Translations under genes and position numbers: made by a program
Notes under the pieces: generated by a model
Database searches by the model: none
Told to the model about the DNA's origin: nothing
What the model saw: only the letters and a program-made list of their open reading frames with translations
From: Okamejei kenojei
Taxonomy: Eukaryota
Length of the DNA stretch: 64,000 bases
NCBI GenBank assembly: GCA_035221665.1
Contig: CM069131.1
Location: forward strand, 88,536,001 to 88,600,000
Direction of reading: 5' to 3'
Part shown: piece after piece, positions 2,156 to 63,444 of the stretch
Layout: each line of letters begins with the position of its first letter
Numbering within the stretch: the stretch's first letter is position 1

Positions 2156-2350
2156 TAGAGACGGCTCTTCAGCCTCCGGGGTCATGGGAGTGCCATCAGG
2201 TGTTGAGGGAGGGCTAGGATCATCGACACTGGTCACATCCCCATCTGTCAGTGCATCAAATGATGGCAGTCCATCCTCATCTATCGGGATGCTGTCCAGT
2301 GTCTCAGTTAGAGCAGCCAAAAGGTTGGCCTCGTTTTCTTCATCCATCTT
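2156..2350 (-). CDS. PPARGC1A: PGC-1alpha exon 3 (KMDEENEANLLAALTETLDSIPIDEDGLPSFDALTDGDVT...EAEEPSL)
   Basis: tttgacag acceptor, CTA|GTAAG donor, 195 nt, phase 0. Matches ORF track 2120..2347 and includes the L1 leucine motif LLAAL. Confidence 0.97.
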
Positions 2351-22616: not shown

Positions 22617-22794
22617 NNNNNNNNNNNNNNNNNNNNNNNNNNNNNNNNNNNNNNNNNNNNNNNNNNNNNNNNNNNNNNNNNNNNNNNNNNNNNNNNNNNN
22701 NNNNNNNNNNNNNNNNNNNNNNNNNNNNNNNNNNNNNNNNNNNNNNNNNNNNNNNNNNNNNNNNNNNNNNNNNNNNNNNNNNNNNNNNNNNNNN
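22617..22794. other. Assembly gap (178 N)
   Basis: Run of n. Confidence 1.
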
Positions 22795-42068: not shown

Positions 42069-42997
42069 CTTTATTGATCCCCTCAGGGAAATTGAGATGT
42101 CCAAAAGCCAACAACCAACAAACCCACACAGTCAGAACGAAGGCAGACAGAAAATACATAAAATACAATATGGACAATACCTGAAAGCAATAAATACTTA
42201 AAAAGACCCAATAATTAACTACTAAAAATGCAAAGCATCCTCATACAGCCTGGCGGTTAGTATTATAAAATCTAATGGCTGCAGGGGTGAAGGATCTCCT
42301 GAACCGCTCCGTTCTACAGCGCAGGGAGAGGAGCCGGTTGTTGTTCCGTGTGCTCTTTTAACCCTCCAGAATTTCATGGAGGGGGTGCCCGGAGTTGTCG
42401 AGGATGACCTGCACATTTCTCCTCATACTCCTCTCAAGCACATCCACCACAGAGTCCACTCTCCCCCCCAGCATTGAGCTAATTCGTTTTACCAGCTTGT
42501 CTAACTTCTTGCTGTTTTTAGCACTTATGTTGTTGCCCCAGCAGACACAGCGTAAAAAATGACACTTGCAACCACAGTATTGTAAATCATGTACAGCATG
42601 TCATTGCGCACATTGAAGGATCTGAGCCTTCTGAGGAAAAAGAGTCTGCTCTGTCCTTTTTTGTACAGGGCATCGGTGTTGACAGACCAGCCCAGTTTGT
42701 TATCAAGGTGCACTCCCAGATATTTATATGTCTGCATCACCTCAATGTCCACCCCTGCAGTGTTAAATGGCTGAAGGGGGAGCTTGGACCTTCCAAAGTT
42801 AACAATCATCTCTTTAGTCTTGGTTGTATTCAGGATGAGACAGTTCTCTTTACTCCAGACACAGAAAGCACTGGTCAAGTCCCTGTATTCCTCCTCATGT
42901 CCGTTCCTTACACATGCCACAATCGCTGTGTCATCTGAATATTTCTGTATGTGGCATGTGTCAGACTTATATTTGAAGTCTGCAGTATACAGGGTGA
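42034..42997 (-). mobile_element. Rex/Babar-type LINE 3' fragment nested in Gypsy gag
   Basis: FTLYTADF..HIQKYSDDTAIV, YKYLGVHLDNKL, GQSRLFFLRRLRSF; (TTA)n tail at 42034-42064. Confidence 0.85.
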
Positions 42998-45827
42998 AGA
43001 TGTTCCCGAGGTTCAGACAGCTATGTGACCTTCGCGCCAACTCCATATGAAACGTACTAAATTTTTTGCTCAAAACCAGGTGAGACTGTGGAAAACTGCA
43101 TCAGCAATATGAAACGTATTGCTGCACGCTGCCGTTTTGCTAATCTGTGTGATGAACTTGTCCGTGACAGACTGGTGGGTGGAATCCTCAGTGATAAAGT
43201 ATGTGATGAATTACTCCGCGATACTGAACTAATCCTGGCCTGAGCTGAGCATGATTGTTGTATTGCTGAGATCACGACCTCTCACACTAAATCAATGGGG
43301 CCCGGACTGCATTCCTCATACCATGTTGATGCTACTGACACCTCCTACCGTAACCAGTGCTCCCAGCCCCACACATCGTCTCGACTATCTCAAAGGTTCG
43401 TGAATTGTGCATTGCCTTTGCAAAACTATGCATTATTGCAAAAGGAAAAAACATTTCTTTAAATGCTGCCTTACCCGTGGGAATCGCTCACTCCCAAGGC
43501 AGTCTGTGCACCTGTTATAAAATGAAGATTCAGATATCAAGTACCAAGAGTTACCAGCACCTCCTCCAGTCGCCCTTCCCGAGCTTGAAGATAACAATCA
43601 TATACTACCACTAACAAGCAAGTCTACCCTGAAGTCTCACTTCATGTGAACAATACCATTACTGTTGCAAAGATCGACACTGGAGCCAAATATCATGTCA
43701 TTATCTGAATTTACACGGATCAAAAATGCCGAACATATTGTAAACACTTCAGCCACTTTCTTAGCCTACAGGGGAGGGGACGTGCACCCAATTGGAGAAG
43801 CTGAGCTGAACTGCCACCTAACATCTCAAGCTCACAAGCTCAACTTTTTCATTGCCCGTGGGAAAGTTGCAACTCTGCTTGGTGTTAACCCGTGCCAGGA
43901 CCTAGGACTGGTAACTTTTGGGCCTGCTGTCCATCAAATAACTCCTGCCGAGGGTTCCACCCAGCACATACTTTCCCAGTACAAGGAATTATTTGACGAT
44001 AAGCTTGGGAAGCTACCCATCAAATACAACATCGTCACCGATGCAAATGTCCTACCTGTGGTATGAGCACCACACCGCATTCCACGTGCTATGCGTGACA
44101 GCGTACACAATGAGCTCCAGCAGATTATGTCCCTGGGTGTCATTGCCACGGTTACTGACCCATCCCACTGGTTTCCACCATGGTGGTTGCAACAAAGAAA
44201 AACAAAGAAGAAATCCAAATTTGTATCAACCCCAGAGACCTGAACACAGCGATCAAACGCCCGCACTACCCGATGCGCACGTTGGAGGAAGTTGCTGCCC
44301 AGCTAGGCAGTGCCTCGGTAATTTCTGTTCTAGATGCCAAAAGTTTGTTCTGGCAGATCCCGCTGGACCCCGACTCGTCCAATCTCGCCTCGTTCGGAAC
44401 TCCCTTTGGCCATTACAAATTTCTGCGGATGCCCTTTGGCATCAACTCTCCCAGCAAAGTATTCCAATGTACAATGGAACAATTATTTATGGGGTATCCT
44501 TGTGCCATCATTGTCGATGACATTCTCGTTGCTGGATGTGACATGGCTGAACATGATGCCAACTTGAAAAAAATACTGGACAGTGCAAAAGTCATCCATC
44601 ACAAGCTCAACCATCTGAAGTGCAGATTTTGCATCAAGGAGGTCCATTATGTCAGATACATATTCACCAGTGACGGCCTCAGACCTGACCCCTCCAAGAA
44701 CATTGCCATCAATGAGATGCCAGTTCCAACTGACGTGACAAGTTTGCAGAGATTCCTGGGAATGGTTAACTACTTGAGGAAATTAATTCCCAACCTCAGC
44801 AAAATATCTTCTCCCCTGCGACAACTGACTCACAAGGTCTCTGCATGGTCCTGCCAGACAATACTGCTGGGCTTTTGAAATCCTTAAATTATAATTGTCA
44901 AGTGCCCCTACCCTAGCTTATTTTGATTGAAACCTACAGGTGACAATCACGTGTGATGCCTCCCAATATTTACCCAGAGCTGCTTGCCTACAGATTTCTG
45001 CCGAAGGAGACAGCAGGCCCATTGCTTACACCTCCCATACCCTGTTTGAGACTGAACAGCGATACGCCCAGATCGAAAAGGAATTAATCGCCGTGGTTTT
45101 TGCCTGCACAAAATTCAAGGACTTTATTTTTGGTAAGTTCGTGGTTGTTGAAACAGACCACCAACCGTTGGTCACCATTCTGAACAAACCCATTCATGCC
45201 GCTCCTGCTCGCCTACAACGGATGATAGTGCAGCTACAGAGTTTTGATTTTACCCTAGTCTACAAAAAGGGCAAGGACATGCATCCAGCTGACACGCTAT
45301 CAAGAGCCCCATGAACAACCTGCAAATAACAGCCGTATGAAAATGACCAGTTCACAGTAGTGATGGTGTCCTACGTACCTACAGAATGCCTAAGCAACAT
45401 GGCAGAACATACGGCTGCGGATTCAACTCTACGACTACTGTCCTCAGTCATCTGGCATGGCTGGCCGGATAAACAATATCACGCCCCACTTCCTATTCGC
45501 TCATAATACATGGTTTGCGACAAACTGGTACTGCAGGTTACAAAGCAGTCATCCCAGCTGCTCTGCAGGATAAATACTTTGATGCCATCCACAGGGGTCA
45601 CCCCGGCAGGGAAGCAACTTTACTATGTGCAAAGAGCATGTTTTTCTGGCTCGGAATGACCGAGAAAGTTCAAGTCTGTGGCGTCTGCAACAGCCTGATG
45701 CAACACCAACAGAAGCAGCCCCTGCTCTCACACCCTGTTCCTCCTCTGCCTTGGTCTATGCTTGCTACTGACATATTCGAGTGGTATGGCAAACAGTATC
45801 TGGTTCTCGTTGACTCGTATTCAGGTT

Positions 45828-45950
45828 GCTTTATTGTCATTCAGACCTTTCGGTCTGAACGAAATTTCGTTACCTTGCAGTCATAACATGTAATAAATTA
45901 AAACAAAACACACAATAAACACATAATTCAACATCCACCACAGTGAGTTC
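45828..45950 (-). mobile_element. Short LINE/SINE 3'-tail insertion in Gypsy integrase
   Basis: Minus strand gaaatttcg-ttcagacc gaaa ggtctgaa-tgacaataaa; breaks integrase between LVLVDSYSG and HFAVHGAP. Confidence 0.65.
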
Positions 45951-47036
45951 ATGTCGATCCCAGCTGTCGCATCGTCATTTCGCCGTACACGGCGCCCCTG
46001 CATGCCTCTGGTTAGTTAACGGCAGTCAGTTCACTAGCCAGTGTTTCAAAAACTTTGCTCAACGATGGGATTTTCGTCATGTCACAACAGTCCAGAATTC
46101 CCACAGTCAAATGGACTTGCAGAACAGGCTGTCCAGATGCCAAGCAATTAACAGAGCGCCCACACCTTGCCAAATCCGATGTCTACCTGGACCTGCTCAA
46201 CTTAGAAACATCATCCGTGACCCAATACTGGGTTCTCCCGCCCAACGCCTGATATCCCAACAGACCTGTGCTGTACTGCCTGTGCCTCAACAACTATTGC
46301 AACCACAGGTTTGTTCACCACTTGCTGTACAGAAACAACTCCAGCTGAAACCTGCTAAACCTGCAGCTGCAGACCAACCATTGGTTGTGTCTCCAGCTTC
46401 CTCACCACCACGTTTGGTGCCCCGCTTGCCTGCCTCGCCATGTTTGTCCCCGGGTCAACAGTGCTCCCGCCGCATGGGACCCCGGCAATCTCGCCGTTGA
46501 AGGGAGGAGCTATACCGTATGCGCGCGACGGGTTTGTAGGCCACCCCATAGATACGGGGATTTTGTTTGAACCATTTGTACTTCCCTGTATGTGCTATTA
46601 GCATTTTGGGTACTGTTTTAATCAGTCAGCACCTGGTAATGTGTTTGTTCATATATATCAGTTTATTTTAGAAGTGTCTCAATTTTTATTCTTACAAGGA
46701 AAGATGTAGATTGGTTACTTTACTTACTAACCAATGTAATGTTTTATTATTATAAGCTGCGTCTACTACCAACATTCATATTATCGCAACCTGACATGTG
46801 CTGCCAGTCAGTGCTGCCATACAGTAGATGTAACATGCTGTAGTGTGTAGTATGCGTTACTCAATAAATACTGTTGTACCAGTTCAGTGAGTATGTTTGA
46901 TTCATTCAACAGCATCTACTTTTGCGAGCTTTTTGAGCATTATCTCACTTCAGGTGTAACATGCATTCAGCAGATTTCTGTTAAATTGATGCAACCAAAA
47001 CTTTGATTCTTGATGTGGTCTATTTGAATGTCTTAC

Positions 47037-47216
47037 CTCAAAGAGATCAGATGAGTCAGAGCCATAATGATTGGAAATTATTTCCGATTGGTCACTGTAC
47101 CACTTGAGTCCACCTAGAAAATTTTCTGTGTCCAAGTCATTCACATCGAGCTCAGAAAGGTCAAGTTCAGGGAGATCTGAACACAGAGGCTGATCTTCAC
47201 CTACTAAGGCAGCACA
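47037..47216 (-). CDS. PPARGC1A: PGC-1alpha exon 2 (CAALVGEDQPLCSDLPELDLSELDVNDLDTENFLGGLKWYSDQSEIISNHYGSDSSDLFE), acidic activation domain
   Basis: ttttcttcacag acceptor, GAG|GTAAGA donor, 180 nt, phase 0. Near-identical to the recalled PGC-1alpha exon 2 peptide. Confidence 0.97.
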
Positions 47217-50200: not shown

Positions 50201-50731
50201 TTGGAACATTATCAGCACCGTAACAATTACATTTTTTTTAAATAAAACGCATTGTTCACACATTGAGCTAAGATATCTAATTGACTCAAACACATTGTTG
50301 ATGCACTTCCAGCAGATTTCCAAATGACCAGCAGGATTTTAGGTTATAACTGGATCTTGACACAATTGTTTCAGAAATGAGAATTAAAATAAAAGAAGTT
50401 ACTGTCACTTTCCACAGCATTGAAAATCACATGACATGTGACTGCATTCCAAATGAAGGAGGCAGATAAACAGATGATGGAATTTCTATCCTGCTTAAAA
50501 TACTTCAGAGAAGTTTTACGTTGAGGTCACAAAAAAAAGTTCAACAAAGCCAGTTCATCTTGAAATATAATAAAAGCATCAGTCTACTTGCCTGTGGCAT
50601 TGCCTCAATCAATTATTGGTAGAACAAGTTCAGGACAGTTGAGGTTTAGGTGAGTACACTTTTAAGTAGTATTCTCTGATCATTCCTACTTATTCCTGCT
50701 GCAAAGATCACTGAATCGTGTTACTGCTCAC

Positions 50732-50779
50732 CTCTGTTTCACTCCACTCAAAGCTTTGGTTGCACCTGTCCCGCTCCAT
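50732..50779 (-). CDS. PPARGC1A: PGC-1alpha exon 1 coding part (MERDRCNQSFEWSETE)
   Basis: Minus strand reads gagctga-ATG GAG CGG GAC AGG TGC AAC CAA ... GAA ACA GAG|GTGAGC. 48 nt, phase 0. Resembles vertebrate MAWD(M/R)CNQ..W..E and lies directly below a conserved promoter. Confidence 0.9.
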
Positions 50780-50791
50780 TCAGCTCGTGGC

Positions 50792-50848
50792 TTAAAATCT
50801 CAATAAATCCACACACACACACAGGCACACACACACACACACACACAT
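50792..50848 (-). other. Short uORF (18 codons) ending 12 nt before the main ATG
   Basis: ATG 50848, MCVCVCVCLCVCVDLLRF*, TAA at 50794-50792. Confidence 0.6.
50810..50847. repeat. Interrupted (CA)n/(TG)n microsatellite in the PPARGC1A 5'UTR
   Basis: Two CA runs separated by 'gg', read directly. Confidence 0.95.
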
Positions 50849-51564
50849 AGGCGCACACCCACACCCACAGAAAGCACATGTGTGGTGCCGGCCCCATACA
50901 GAGATTGAACTGAAGGCACCTGACTTACTACTACACTAACGCTACTGTTTAGTATCACATGACAAGGTTATTAAAAGTAGCTGTGCTGTCAGTCAGAAGT
51001 ACTGTTCCATGATAAAACAAATGACGTATTAAGAGGGTGGAGTTACAAAGTGCAGTCAATCTTTAAACTACTCAACCTTTGAGTCTTCAGACCCAGGCTG
51101 TGATTAAATCCACTGTTTCAAGGCACACCTTTCATTAGCATGCTACAGATAAAGAAATTCACTCGTAAAATAACCTACTTTTATAATCTTGAAATACTTT
51201 ATAGAACATGAGATAAACACTATTACTGTAATTGTAAATTGACTTTTACTATATTTTGTAAAATCAGAAGCTTGTTTCATAAAACAGCATTTGTAGAGAT
51301 CACACAATACAAAATGCTTTTATTATGTATCCCTTTCCCACTTTACACACAATGAAACTCATACGAATTGTAACGCTGAAGTATCAAACTAAATAAATAA
51401 ATATGAATCTTGTTTTTCTCTGTTAGGTGGAGACACAAATCAGATTTCCATAAATTCATTGAAGATCATCTGACCACGTACTTCACCGAAACATACACAC
51501 TTCAAAAGGAACATAACAAAAAAGCACAGCTCATCTGTGTTGATAGTCAAAATACTGTGGTACA

Positions 51565-58478: not shown

Positions 58479-58914
58479 AGGTTCAACATTTTCATGATTT
58501 CAGCTGGCAAAGATTATCAAACCAGATAAAGTATTTATAATGTCCTAAAATAATGAATTCCTTTTGTCAGGAATTGTCTAGGTAGGTTCCCGTGGGTCCT
58601 CAATCGGCAGCGGGCTAGTCGGGCGGGTTCCGGTCCTTGGTGCGAGTCCTCTGTCTGTGCCGGGCAAGTCCCCAGTCTACGTGCTGTGGCTTGCCTCAGG
58701 ATACTCCAGGGGTGTGCCAGGCACATCTCCTCGCTCTGCAGCCGCCCAGGCCCGGTCCCGGTCAGCTCCACGTCGGCAGCTAGGCCCGGTCCAGTACAGC
58801 TGTGCAGTGCTCACCAGGAACTCCCTTCTGTGCTGGTGCAGCGCTTGCCGGAAGCTTCCTTAAGTCCCACAGATTAAAAGCATGAAACCAGCCCTCTAAC
58901 CAAATAATAACCTT

Positions 58915-60320
58915 AATAACCTTTTGTTTGACTCCTCCCATTTCCTCCAAATCCAAGGTTTAGCTATGGGCACGCACATGGGCCCCAGCTATGCCTGCCT
59001 ATTCGTAGGGTACGTCGAACAATCCTTGTTCGAGATGTACCCGGGCCACATCCCTGACCTCTACATCAATGATCGCATTGGTGTCACCTCTTGCACCCAC
59101 ACACAACTCACTGACTTCATCCGCTTCACCACTAACGTCCATCTGGCACTCAAATACACCTGGACCATTTCCGACACATCCCAACCATTTCTTGACCTCA
59201 CTATCTCCATCGCAGGTGATAGACTTCTGACCGACATCCACCATAAACCCACTGACCCATGGCTATCTAGACTACACTTCTTCCCACCCTGCTTCCTGTA
59301 AGGACTCCATCCCCTACTCCCAATTCCTCCATCTACGCCGCATCTGCTCCCAGGATGAGGTGTTCCACACCAGGGCATCGGAAATGGCCTCTTTCTTCAG
59401 GGAACGGGGGTTCCCCTCCCCTACTATAGATGAGGCTCTCAGTGGGGTCTCTTCAATACGCAACACTGTTTTCTCTCCCTATCCCCCCACTCGCAACAAG
59501 GGCAAAGGCCCCCTAGTCCTCACCTTTCACCCCACTAGCCGTCACATACAACAAATAGTCCCCCGTCATTTTCGCCACCTCCAACGTGACCCCACCATTC
59601 GCCACATCTTCCCATCTCCCCCCGTCTGCTTTCCGCAAAGACCGCTCCCTCCGTAACTCCCTGGTCAATTATTTCCTTCCCTCCCGCACTACCCCCTCCC
59701 CGGCCACTTTCCCTTGCAACCGCAAGAGATGCTACACTTGTCGCTTTACCTCCCCCCTCAACTCCATTCAAGGACCCAAGCAGTCGTTCCAGGTGCGACA
59801 GAGGTTCACCTGCACCTCCTCCAACCTCATCTATTGCATCCGCTGCTCTAGATGTCAGCTGATCTGCATCGGTGAGAACAAGCATAGGCTTGGCGATCGT
59901 TTCGCCGATCACCTCCGCTCGGTCCGCATTAACCAACCTGATCTCCCTGTGGCTCAGCACTACAATTCCCCTTTCCATTCCGAATCTGACCTTTCTGTCC
60001 TGGGCCTCCTCCATGGCCAGAGTGAGCACCACTGGAAATTGGAGGAGCAGCACCTCATATTACGCTTGGGCAGTTTGCACCCTAGCGGCATGAACATTGA
60101 CTTCTCCAATTTCGGGTAGCCCTTGCTGTCTCCTCCCCTTCTCAGCTCTGCCTCGGCCCTCTGGCTCCTCCTCTTCCTTCTTCTCCCCCCCCCCCCCCCC
60201 CCCCCCCCCCCCACCCACCCTACATCAGTCTGAGGAAGGGTTTTGGCCCGAAACGTTGCCTATTTCCTTCTCTCCATAGATGCTGCTGCACCCGCTGAGT
60301 TTCTCCAGCACTTTTGTCAA
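58915..60320 (+). mobile_element. Penelope-like element (RT C-terminal part, GIY-YIG, hammerhead-like tail), frameshifted
   Basis: HFLQIQGLAMGTHMGPSYACLFVG, PFLDL, TDIHHKPTD, IYCIRCSRCQLICIGE; CTGAGGA...GAAAC at 60230-60254. Confidence 0.92.
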
Positions 60321-61730: not shown

Positions 61731-62849
61731 CAATGTTGTACTGCATGATTTATATTGCAGTGAACCAGGGCTGGATATTCTGCTCCAGATTACCTTCACA
61801 ACTATTTTGTTTTGGATTTGTTTTATGAATCCCTCATAATGCCTGTTAGATAAGAGCCTTTTTGTAGTGCAACATTCATTGGCGGTTGTAGTTACAGTCA
61901 GTTTGGCTAGAACAGGTTAATGGGGTTAACTCTGAGGCATTAATTTACACAGGCACAGCAGCGAAAATAAATGCAGAGTTTGTTTTGCCACCAAGCCACT
62001 AACTATATTCTTGTAACATCTCTCTCCTCACTTAGCTAGTGGAATTCAATAGTTCAGAATCCAGGTAAAGAAAACATGACACGGTTGTGAATGTGACGTG
62101 AAACATGGCTCCCTTAAGATGCCATTTTTTTTCTACTGGCAATATTCATACCTTTTGTTTTGGAGATCCATATGCTAGCAGAATATTTAGATATATAAAA
62201 CAGAGACCTGCCATTAACAATGGAACTTTTGAATGTTTACCAGTGGGTAATCTTCAGCTACTTACAGAGTTTTATTTTATTGATGTAGCTTTAATTCCAC
62301 AAATCTTTGGTTGGAATTAATTTTTTAATAAAAACATTCTCTTCTGTTTTTCTGAAACTTTATGCAGTTCCATATATATGTTATAAGGTCAAATGGTACA
62401 GAAATAGGCCCTAGGTCTAACAAGTCCCTCCCAGCTATTTTTTCTCCCCATGCTCTCATTTACTCCCCCCAGATTCAATACACACCTACATACTCAGGGC
62501 AATTTACAGTGGCCAATTAAACTATCAAACCACATGTCCTTGGGAAGTAGGGACACAAGAACATAGAATACAGCACAGAAATGGGCCCTTCGGCCCACCA
62601 TATCCGTGCCGAACATGATATTGTTAAATTAGTCTCCTCCGCCTGCACATGGTAAATATCCCTACATTCCTTGCATATTTATGTGCTTATCTAAAAGCCT
62701 CTTAATTGTCACTGTTACATCTGCCACACAATACTTCAAATGCAGTCTAACCAAAGTTTTATAAAACTGTAACATAACCTCCTGATTCTTGTACTTAAAT
62801 TCCTTACTGATAAATCAGTAAGCTGCTTGGTACCAAGGAACTGGTACCA

Positions 62850-63444
62850 AGGTACCAAGGAACTGATTGTGGACCTCGGGAGGGGTAGGATGGGGACCCA
62901 CAGTCCCATTTACAACAACGGGTCAATGATCGAAAGGGTCAAGATCTTCAAATTCCTGGGCATGCATATTGCCGAAGATCTCTCCTGGTCCCAGAACACT
63001 GATGCAATCACAAAGAAAGCACATCAGCGCTTCTACTTCCTGAGAAGATTACGGAGAATCGGTCTGTCAAGGAGGACTCTCTTGAACTTCTACAGGTGCA
63101 CAGTAGAGCGCATGCTGACCGGTTACATCGTGGCTTGGTACGGCAACTTGAGCATCCAGGAGTGGAAAAGGCTGCAAAAAGTTGTAAACACTGCCCAGTC
63201 CATCATCGGCTCTGACCTCCCCACCATCGAGGGGATCTATCGCAGTTGCCACCTCAAAAAAGTCTGCCAACATCATCAAGGACCCACACTATCCTGGCCA
63301 CACACTCATCTCTCCGCTGCCATCAGGAAGAAGGTACTGGAGACTGAAATCTGCAACAGCTTCCCTACAGCCATCAGACTATTAAACACAACTTCAAACA
63401 AACTCTGAACTATAACAGCCTATTGCAATGTATCTGTTTATTGA

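Follow-up and report, generated by a model that had tools for sequence, protein, structure and literature searches.

Can a short tandem repeat in the leader of PPARGC1A, the gene for PGC-1alpha, set how well this protein is translated? The question is raised by a skate locus in which a TG microsatellite lies between the upstream ATGs (uATGs) of the leader and the stop codons that end their reading frames. The original prediction saw here a possible switch, in which the gain or loss of one TG unit would turn an upstream ORF (uORF) that overlaps the main ORF into one that terminates before it. We consider it fairly probable that the locus is something plainer: the known repressive PGC-1alpha leader together with a drifting TG repeat, whose predicted effect on output is small. 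(The window is the whole stretch of 64,000 nucleotides that was analysed, and positions are counted from its first letter.)

The locus is PPARGC1A in a skate-like batoid, with ATG 50779 on the minus strand as the main start codon. The coding part of exon 1 (50732..50779, minus) has 16 codons and a GT donor. It is identical to the skate-cluster protein P0121 at 14 of 16 residues, and the same Met opens 37 of the 37 chondrichthyan proteins, from sharks and rays, that use exon 1, a count of isoforms and not of independent species. Exon 2 (47037..47216, minus; 180 nt) shares 98% identity with Rhinoraja PGC-1alpha (E 2e-29), and every one of its best 15 matches is a chondrichthyan PGC-1alpha; exon 3 (2156..2350, minus) is 195 nt long. 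(Residue 3 of exon 1, within window 50782-50771 on the minus strand, is Arg; it is Trp in most chondrichthyan proteins.) An N-terminal extension of poly-Cys-Val was considered and rejected, since its frame contains two stops and all 37 of the chondrichthyan proteins open at Met 50779. Intron 2 is ~44.7 kb long and includes an assembly gap, a 178-base run of N at window 22617-22794. Decayed retroelement-like ORFs, some LTR-type pol-like and some LINE-like, appear in the ORF listing both within intron 2 and upstream; the frames concerned, at ~43650-46250 (plus), 58900-60116, 42528-43100, and 62773-63405, were assigned by eye only.

Annotated elasmobranch isoforms with other first exons bypass or change the canonical leader. 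The skate-cluster isoforms P0122 and P0129 open with M-P-Q, which matches a predicted alternative start at 50592..50600 (minus), ~140 nt into intron 1, with a GC-type donor at 50591 that is in phase with exon 2; other elasmobranch isoforms open with M(I/F)E(A/T)MSQ. The MPQ start would be either a separate first exon or part of a longer exon 1, in which the normal start would become that of a 23-codon uORF. Alternative first exons would dilute any effect of the leader.

The proximal promoter and the likely start of the leader are placed at 50923..51095 (minus), in a conserved block that continues down to ~50903. Among three related organisms, 1 of the 173 places in 50923-51095 is variable, versus 19 of 167 just upstream (Fisher P ~1e-5), and this region aligns with promoter-proximal sequence of L001, an amniote-like orthologue. 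The aligned sequence includes a CRE-like site (51028-51022, minus) and a TATA-like site (50976-50968, minus). A start 25-30 nt below the TATA-like site would fall at ~50945-50935, and all three upstream ATGs would then be in the transcript. An element with an ATG-TGA start-stop at 50964-50955 (minus) is identical in L001; it resembles an E-box/M-box site, and it probably lies upstream of the transcription start.

The three upstream ATGs of the assembled leader are at 50897, 50879, and 50848 (minus), and every coordinate of the original prediction was reproduced. uATG1 (50895..50897, minus), which is absent from L001, lies 118 nt from the main ATG and has T at -3 and G at +4, the same context as the main ATG itself. 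uATG2 (50877..50879, minus) is 100 nt from the main ATG (frame class 1, overlapping), while uATG3 (50846..50848, minus) is 69 nt away and in frame; both have C at -3 and T at +4. The contexts of the uATGs are weak to moderate: uATG2 and uATG3 lack both a -3 purine and a +4 G, and uATG1 has the +4 G only. uATG3 is created by an A preceding the TG run and is likely a by-product of it. As had been described, uATG1 and uATG2 open one and the same frame (ORFs of 49 and 43 codons), which crosses ATG 50779 out of frame with it and closes at a TGA (50748..50750, minus) inside exon 1, at which four related organisms have no listed difference; the uATG3 ORF, 18 codons in the frame of the main ORF, likewise ends at the TAA named for it (50792..50794, minus), 12 nt before the main ATG. 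The third frame is closed by a TGA at 50800..50802 (minus), 20 nt before the main ATG. A second stop in the main-ORF frame, missing from the original prediction, is the TGA at 50780..50782 (minus), which touches the main ATG; L001 has TGG at this place.

The TG microsatellite (50810..50869, minus) consists of degenerate TG (50869-50851), (TG)11 (50847-50826), CC, and (TG)7 (50823-50810). The compound structure, (TG)11-CC-(TG)7, is an addition to the earlier description, and a CC interruption likely reduces slippage. On both strands of the 64 kb window, the leader tract is the sole TG run of at least 8 units. It has two features of a frame switch: its unit is not a multiple of three, and it sits between the uATGs and the stops. 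Below the tract the three frames end differently, just as had been claimed, but this is expected by chance. When the 30-nt spacer was shuffled 100,000 times and the open or closed state of the three frames was compared, the frames differed in state in 83% of shuffles, and 55% left exactly one out-of-frame frame open. Rotation of the frames follows from any dinucleotide repeat placed between an upstream and a main ATG.

The consequences of a change in repeat number can be read directly from the frames. At the assembled length (n), the overlap with the main ORF comes from uATG1 and uATG2, and the uATG3 ORF closes 12 nt short of the main AUG. With one unit more (n+1), there is no overlap: the uATG1 and uATG2 ORFs have 35 and 29 codons and end 12 nt before the AUG, and the uATG3 ORF has 16 codons and ends 20 nt before it. 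With one unit less (n-1), the uATG1 and uATG2 ORFs have 31 and 25 codons and end 20 nt before the AUG, but uATG3 becomes the start of an overlapping ORF of 32 codons. The idea that a one-unit change gives a terminated uORF is therefore correct for the ORF that was named (uATG1/uATG2) and incorrect for the leader as a whole, where n-1 overlaps through uATG3. Changing the tract by one TG unit in either direction does not give a clean on/off effect, since loss of a unit swaps the overlapping ATG; gain abolishes overlap and loss does not. Only one of the three length classes (n+1 mod 3) is free of overlap.

Close relatives were compared via assembled contigs; these come from 8 runs, which cover 6 organisms and belong to a set of 20 with no run listed as RNA, a listing that is silent on expression. 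In this comparison differences less than ~39 letters from the end of a contig piece are not listed, the letters of the tract lie outside, and a contig bridges the tract in just one of the 8 runs (X18); the readable part excludes uATG1 and uATG2 in organisms E and G, and uATG1 in organism C. Both samples of organism B (2 of 2, depth 13-16) carry one extra nucleotide between uATG1 and uATG2, with one further difference remaining unlisted. Combined with the window's tract, which was used in place of B's own, this insertion leaves an overlapping uORF at all 7 lengths tested. In organism C a CA run is present at the location of the tract, and one loose contig end of depth 4.3, weak evidence, reads GTG at the uATG2 position and has a 1-nt insertion. 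Organisms D and E keep both the main ATG and TAA 50794; all 6 of 6 differences in their pieces are listed, and none falls at this TAA.

In organism G one bridging contig has 70 letters between the tract flanks versus 85 in the window. The length of the tract region does differ between related species, as proposed, with G being 15 nt shorter, although part of this shortfall may lie beside the tract, in letters that are not displayed. The position of uATG1 in G comes out 103 nt away from the main ATG, which gives it the frame class that it has in the window (the class is computed for the position, as the letters of uATG1 are not displayed), and the G piece departs from the window near the uATG2 position too, again in letters not displayed. 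Retention of the frame class fits selection on frame and is the single result in its favour; it is one case, with a chance expectation of 1 in 3. In organism A, no contig of either of two samples bridges the tract. The contig overhang near the tract is 41 and 54 letters in one sample (X1) versus 33 and 50 in the other (X5), a difference that could reflect a different allele, or an artefact of depth or of the graph, and that was given no weight.

Comparison over longer distances indicates that the position of the conserved uATG is kept and its frame is not. Of the 2 loci that came out of a protein-based scan, L001 alone includes exon 1; a motif scan of metagenome contigs gave 0 matches. When the two leaders are aligned, ATG 50879 coincides with the one uATG that L001 has (L001 ATG 263), which bears out the proposal that uATG2 occupies the equivalent vertebrate position; the homology is drawn from this one orthologue with DNA plus, at the protein level, salamander extensions that begin with MSV. 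In L001 the uATG is 74 nt from the main ATG (class 2), and its ORF overlaps in the other frame and runs to 63 codons after splicing. L001 has no TG run here; directly after the conserved uATG it carries (TGCC)4 (L001:263-300), a further repeat, independent of the skate tract, in the corresponding place. In three salamander genera (proteins P0019, P0035, P0208, and P0212), the annotated protein has 25 extra residues at its start, which begin with M-S-V and are joined in frame with no stop between. This MSV start is apparently the conserved uATG fused in frame, and it would then begin an N-terminal extension instead of a repressive uORF. Across vertebrates the uATG thus appears to be held in position and free in frame, with all three classes occurring. 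That frame, length, and downstream repeat vary while the uATG is kept suggests that the start codon is conserved, rather than the peptide or the stop.

How might such a leader work? Ribosomes that initiate at an overlapping uORF are unable to reach the main AUG, and those that terminate upstream reach it only via reinitiation. According to an excerpt of PMC5972666, reinitiation varies with uORF length and with the intercistronic distance, which is needed to regain ternary complex. Earlier work cited in an excerpt of PMC6614817 has reinitiation falling beyond 13-18 codons and an optimum spacing of 80-90 nt; the same excerpt's own result, that reinitiation was efficient with 58 codons and 42 nt, counts against our preferred explanation. 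The terminated forms of the uATG1 and uATG2 ORFs have 25-35 codons and leave 12-20 nt before the main AUG. With terminated uORFs this long and spacing this short, most ribosomes that start upstream are predicted never to reach the main ORF in either state: uORFs of 14-35 codons that stop 12-20 nt upstream would reinitiate poorly, much like overlap. Leaky scanning past the three weak-to-moderate ATGs, a process that repeat length would not alter, would then be the main determinant of output; the upstream ATGs would probably damp translation in the way known for this leader, and the TG repeat probably drifts in length.

A toy model of leaky scanning, which uses assumed parameter values and no measurement, illustrates the conditions that a switch needs. 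With uATG use of at most 0.5 and reinitiation of at most 0.1, predicted output differs between length classes by 1.01-1.25-fold. The difference rises to 1.16-1.71-fold at a reinitiation of 0.3 and to 1.35-5.15-fold under strong uATG use. Removal of all uATGs in the model changes output by ~2-4-fold.

These considerations bear on the readings that compete with a damping leader plus a drifting repeat. If slippage moved uATG1/uATG2 between the overlapping and terminated states with material differences in PGC-1alpha translation, and n+1 were derepressed, the repeat would be a tuner of the gene. The frame arithmetic of the tract fits this, as do the homology of uATG2 with the vertebrate uATG and the region in organism G, which differs in length and retains its frame class. 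The premise that overlapping uORFs are generally more repressive also agrees with an excerpt of PMC7253449, by which they are under stronger selection in humans than terminated uORFs and are on average more harmful, and an excerpt of PMC3605397 describes reduced CDKN1B reinitiation when a uORF stop is displaced by a 4-bp deletion. Set against this are the poor reinitiation geometry of the terminated forms (as judged by the excerpts of PMC5972666 and PMC6614817), the overlap through uATG3 at n-1, a B-type leader that would overlap at every length, the weak contexts of the uATGs, and a frame that is not conserved among vertebrates; the GTG at the uATG2 position of organism C points the same way, weakly, given one contig of depth 4.3. 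The lower slippage that is generally likely in a tract broken by CC is a further argument against tuning, and on balance we find a tuner doubtful. The bolder form of the idea, that the skate tract, if polymorphic, would be a heritable three-state dial in which n+1 (mod 3) lifts PGC-1alpha translation about two-fold or more, we judge unlikely.

Other readings dispense with frame altogether. TDP-43- and CELF-type proteins bind UG repeats, and the tract could be a site for such RNA-binding proteins, or a (CA/TG)n transcription element, with an effect that is graded by length and independent of frame. That the sole long TG run of the window lies in this leader, and that organism C also has a CA run at this location, would be in keeping with such a role, but L001 lacks a TG run at this location, the leader shows no folding advantage over its shuffles (z -1.34), and a search of the open-licence literature for this combination found no paper. 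Regulation of Ppargc1a translation by an RNA-binding protein independently of the uORF is described in an excerpt of the RBM43 preprint (10.1101/2023.01.06.522985); even so, we hold this role for the tract to be quite unlikely. The uATGs might instead be hardly used, with transcription starting near or downstream of uATG1/uATG2, or with other first exons dominating, in which case both uORFs and tract would be irrelevant. Weak contexts are compatible with this, and so are the several alternative first exons annotated in elasmobranchs and the one predicted at 50600-50592. It is opposed by the TATA-like site (50976-50968) and the conserved block, which suggest a start near 50945-50935, and by the position of uATG2, kept in L001 and apparently in salamanders; of the readings considered, it is the least probable.

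Parts of this locus have counterparts in known systems. That PPARGC1A carries a conserved uORF which represses it, and which bluefin tuna lacks, is established, according to excerpts of PMC6862278 and PMC8036390. The skate leader resembles it by analogy: the gene is the same, the canonical first exon is the same, the uORFs stand in front of the canonical start codon, and uATG 50879 is at the conserved vertebrate position. Unlike the known leader, that of the skate has a TG microsatellite between its uATGs and stops, and two of its uORFs overlap the main ORF; repression in the skate is a prediction, and one feature of a clean switch fails. Fish are said to carry several uORFs in the study of the repressive PPARGC1A uORF by Dumesic et al. 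in 2019 (Cell Metab 30:190), whose data on fish and sharks may include this leader already.

Small indels that move the stop of a uORF, or make it overlap, have precedents. The excerpt of PMC7253449 treats indels that turn a uORF into an overlapping uORF as a known class of variant, and gives NF2 -65-66insT, a 1-nt frameshift that makes the uORF overlapping, as a predicted mechanism; in the excerpt of PMC3605397, CDKN1B c.-456_-453delCCTT is an experimentally tested shift of a uORF stop. As presented there, these are rare disease alleles, whereas the source of indels in the skate is a microsatellite, and the NF2 uORF has a strong context and evidence of translation, whereas the skate starts are weak to moderate, with three ATGs buffering each other. 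The CGG repeat of FMR1 is likewise a short tandem repeat of the 5' UTR that lies in an overlapping uORF and damps the main ORF, but, according to an excerpt of PMC10027321, its trinucleotide unit entails no change of frame, initiation is at non-AUG codons, and the effect has been shown experimentally. In the open-licence literature, searched through titles and the openings of abstracts, no paper was found on a microsatellite in the PPARGC1A leader, nor on a dinucleotide repeat that shifts the frame of a vertebrate uORF.

If the three-state dial were true, the skate tract would be a vertebrate counterpart of bacterial phase variation acting on a master mitochondrial regulator: a fast-mutating repeat would be tied to mitochondrial capacity via translation, and output would be periodic in repeat number mod 3. 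The comparative point is that an upstream ATG of PGC-1alpha appears to be kept from skates to amniotes, despite changes in its frame, its length, and the repeat that follows it.
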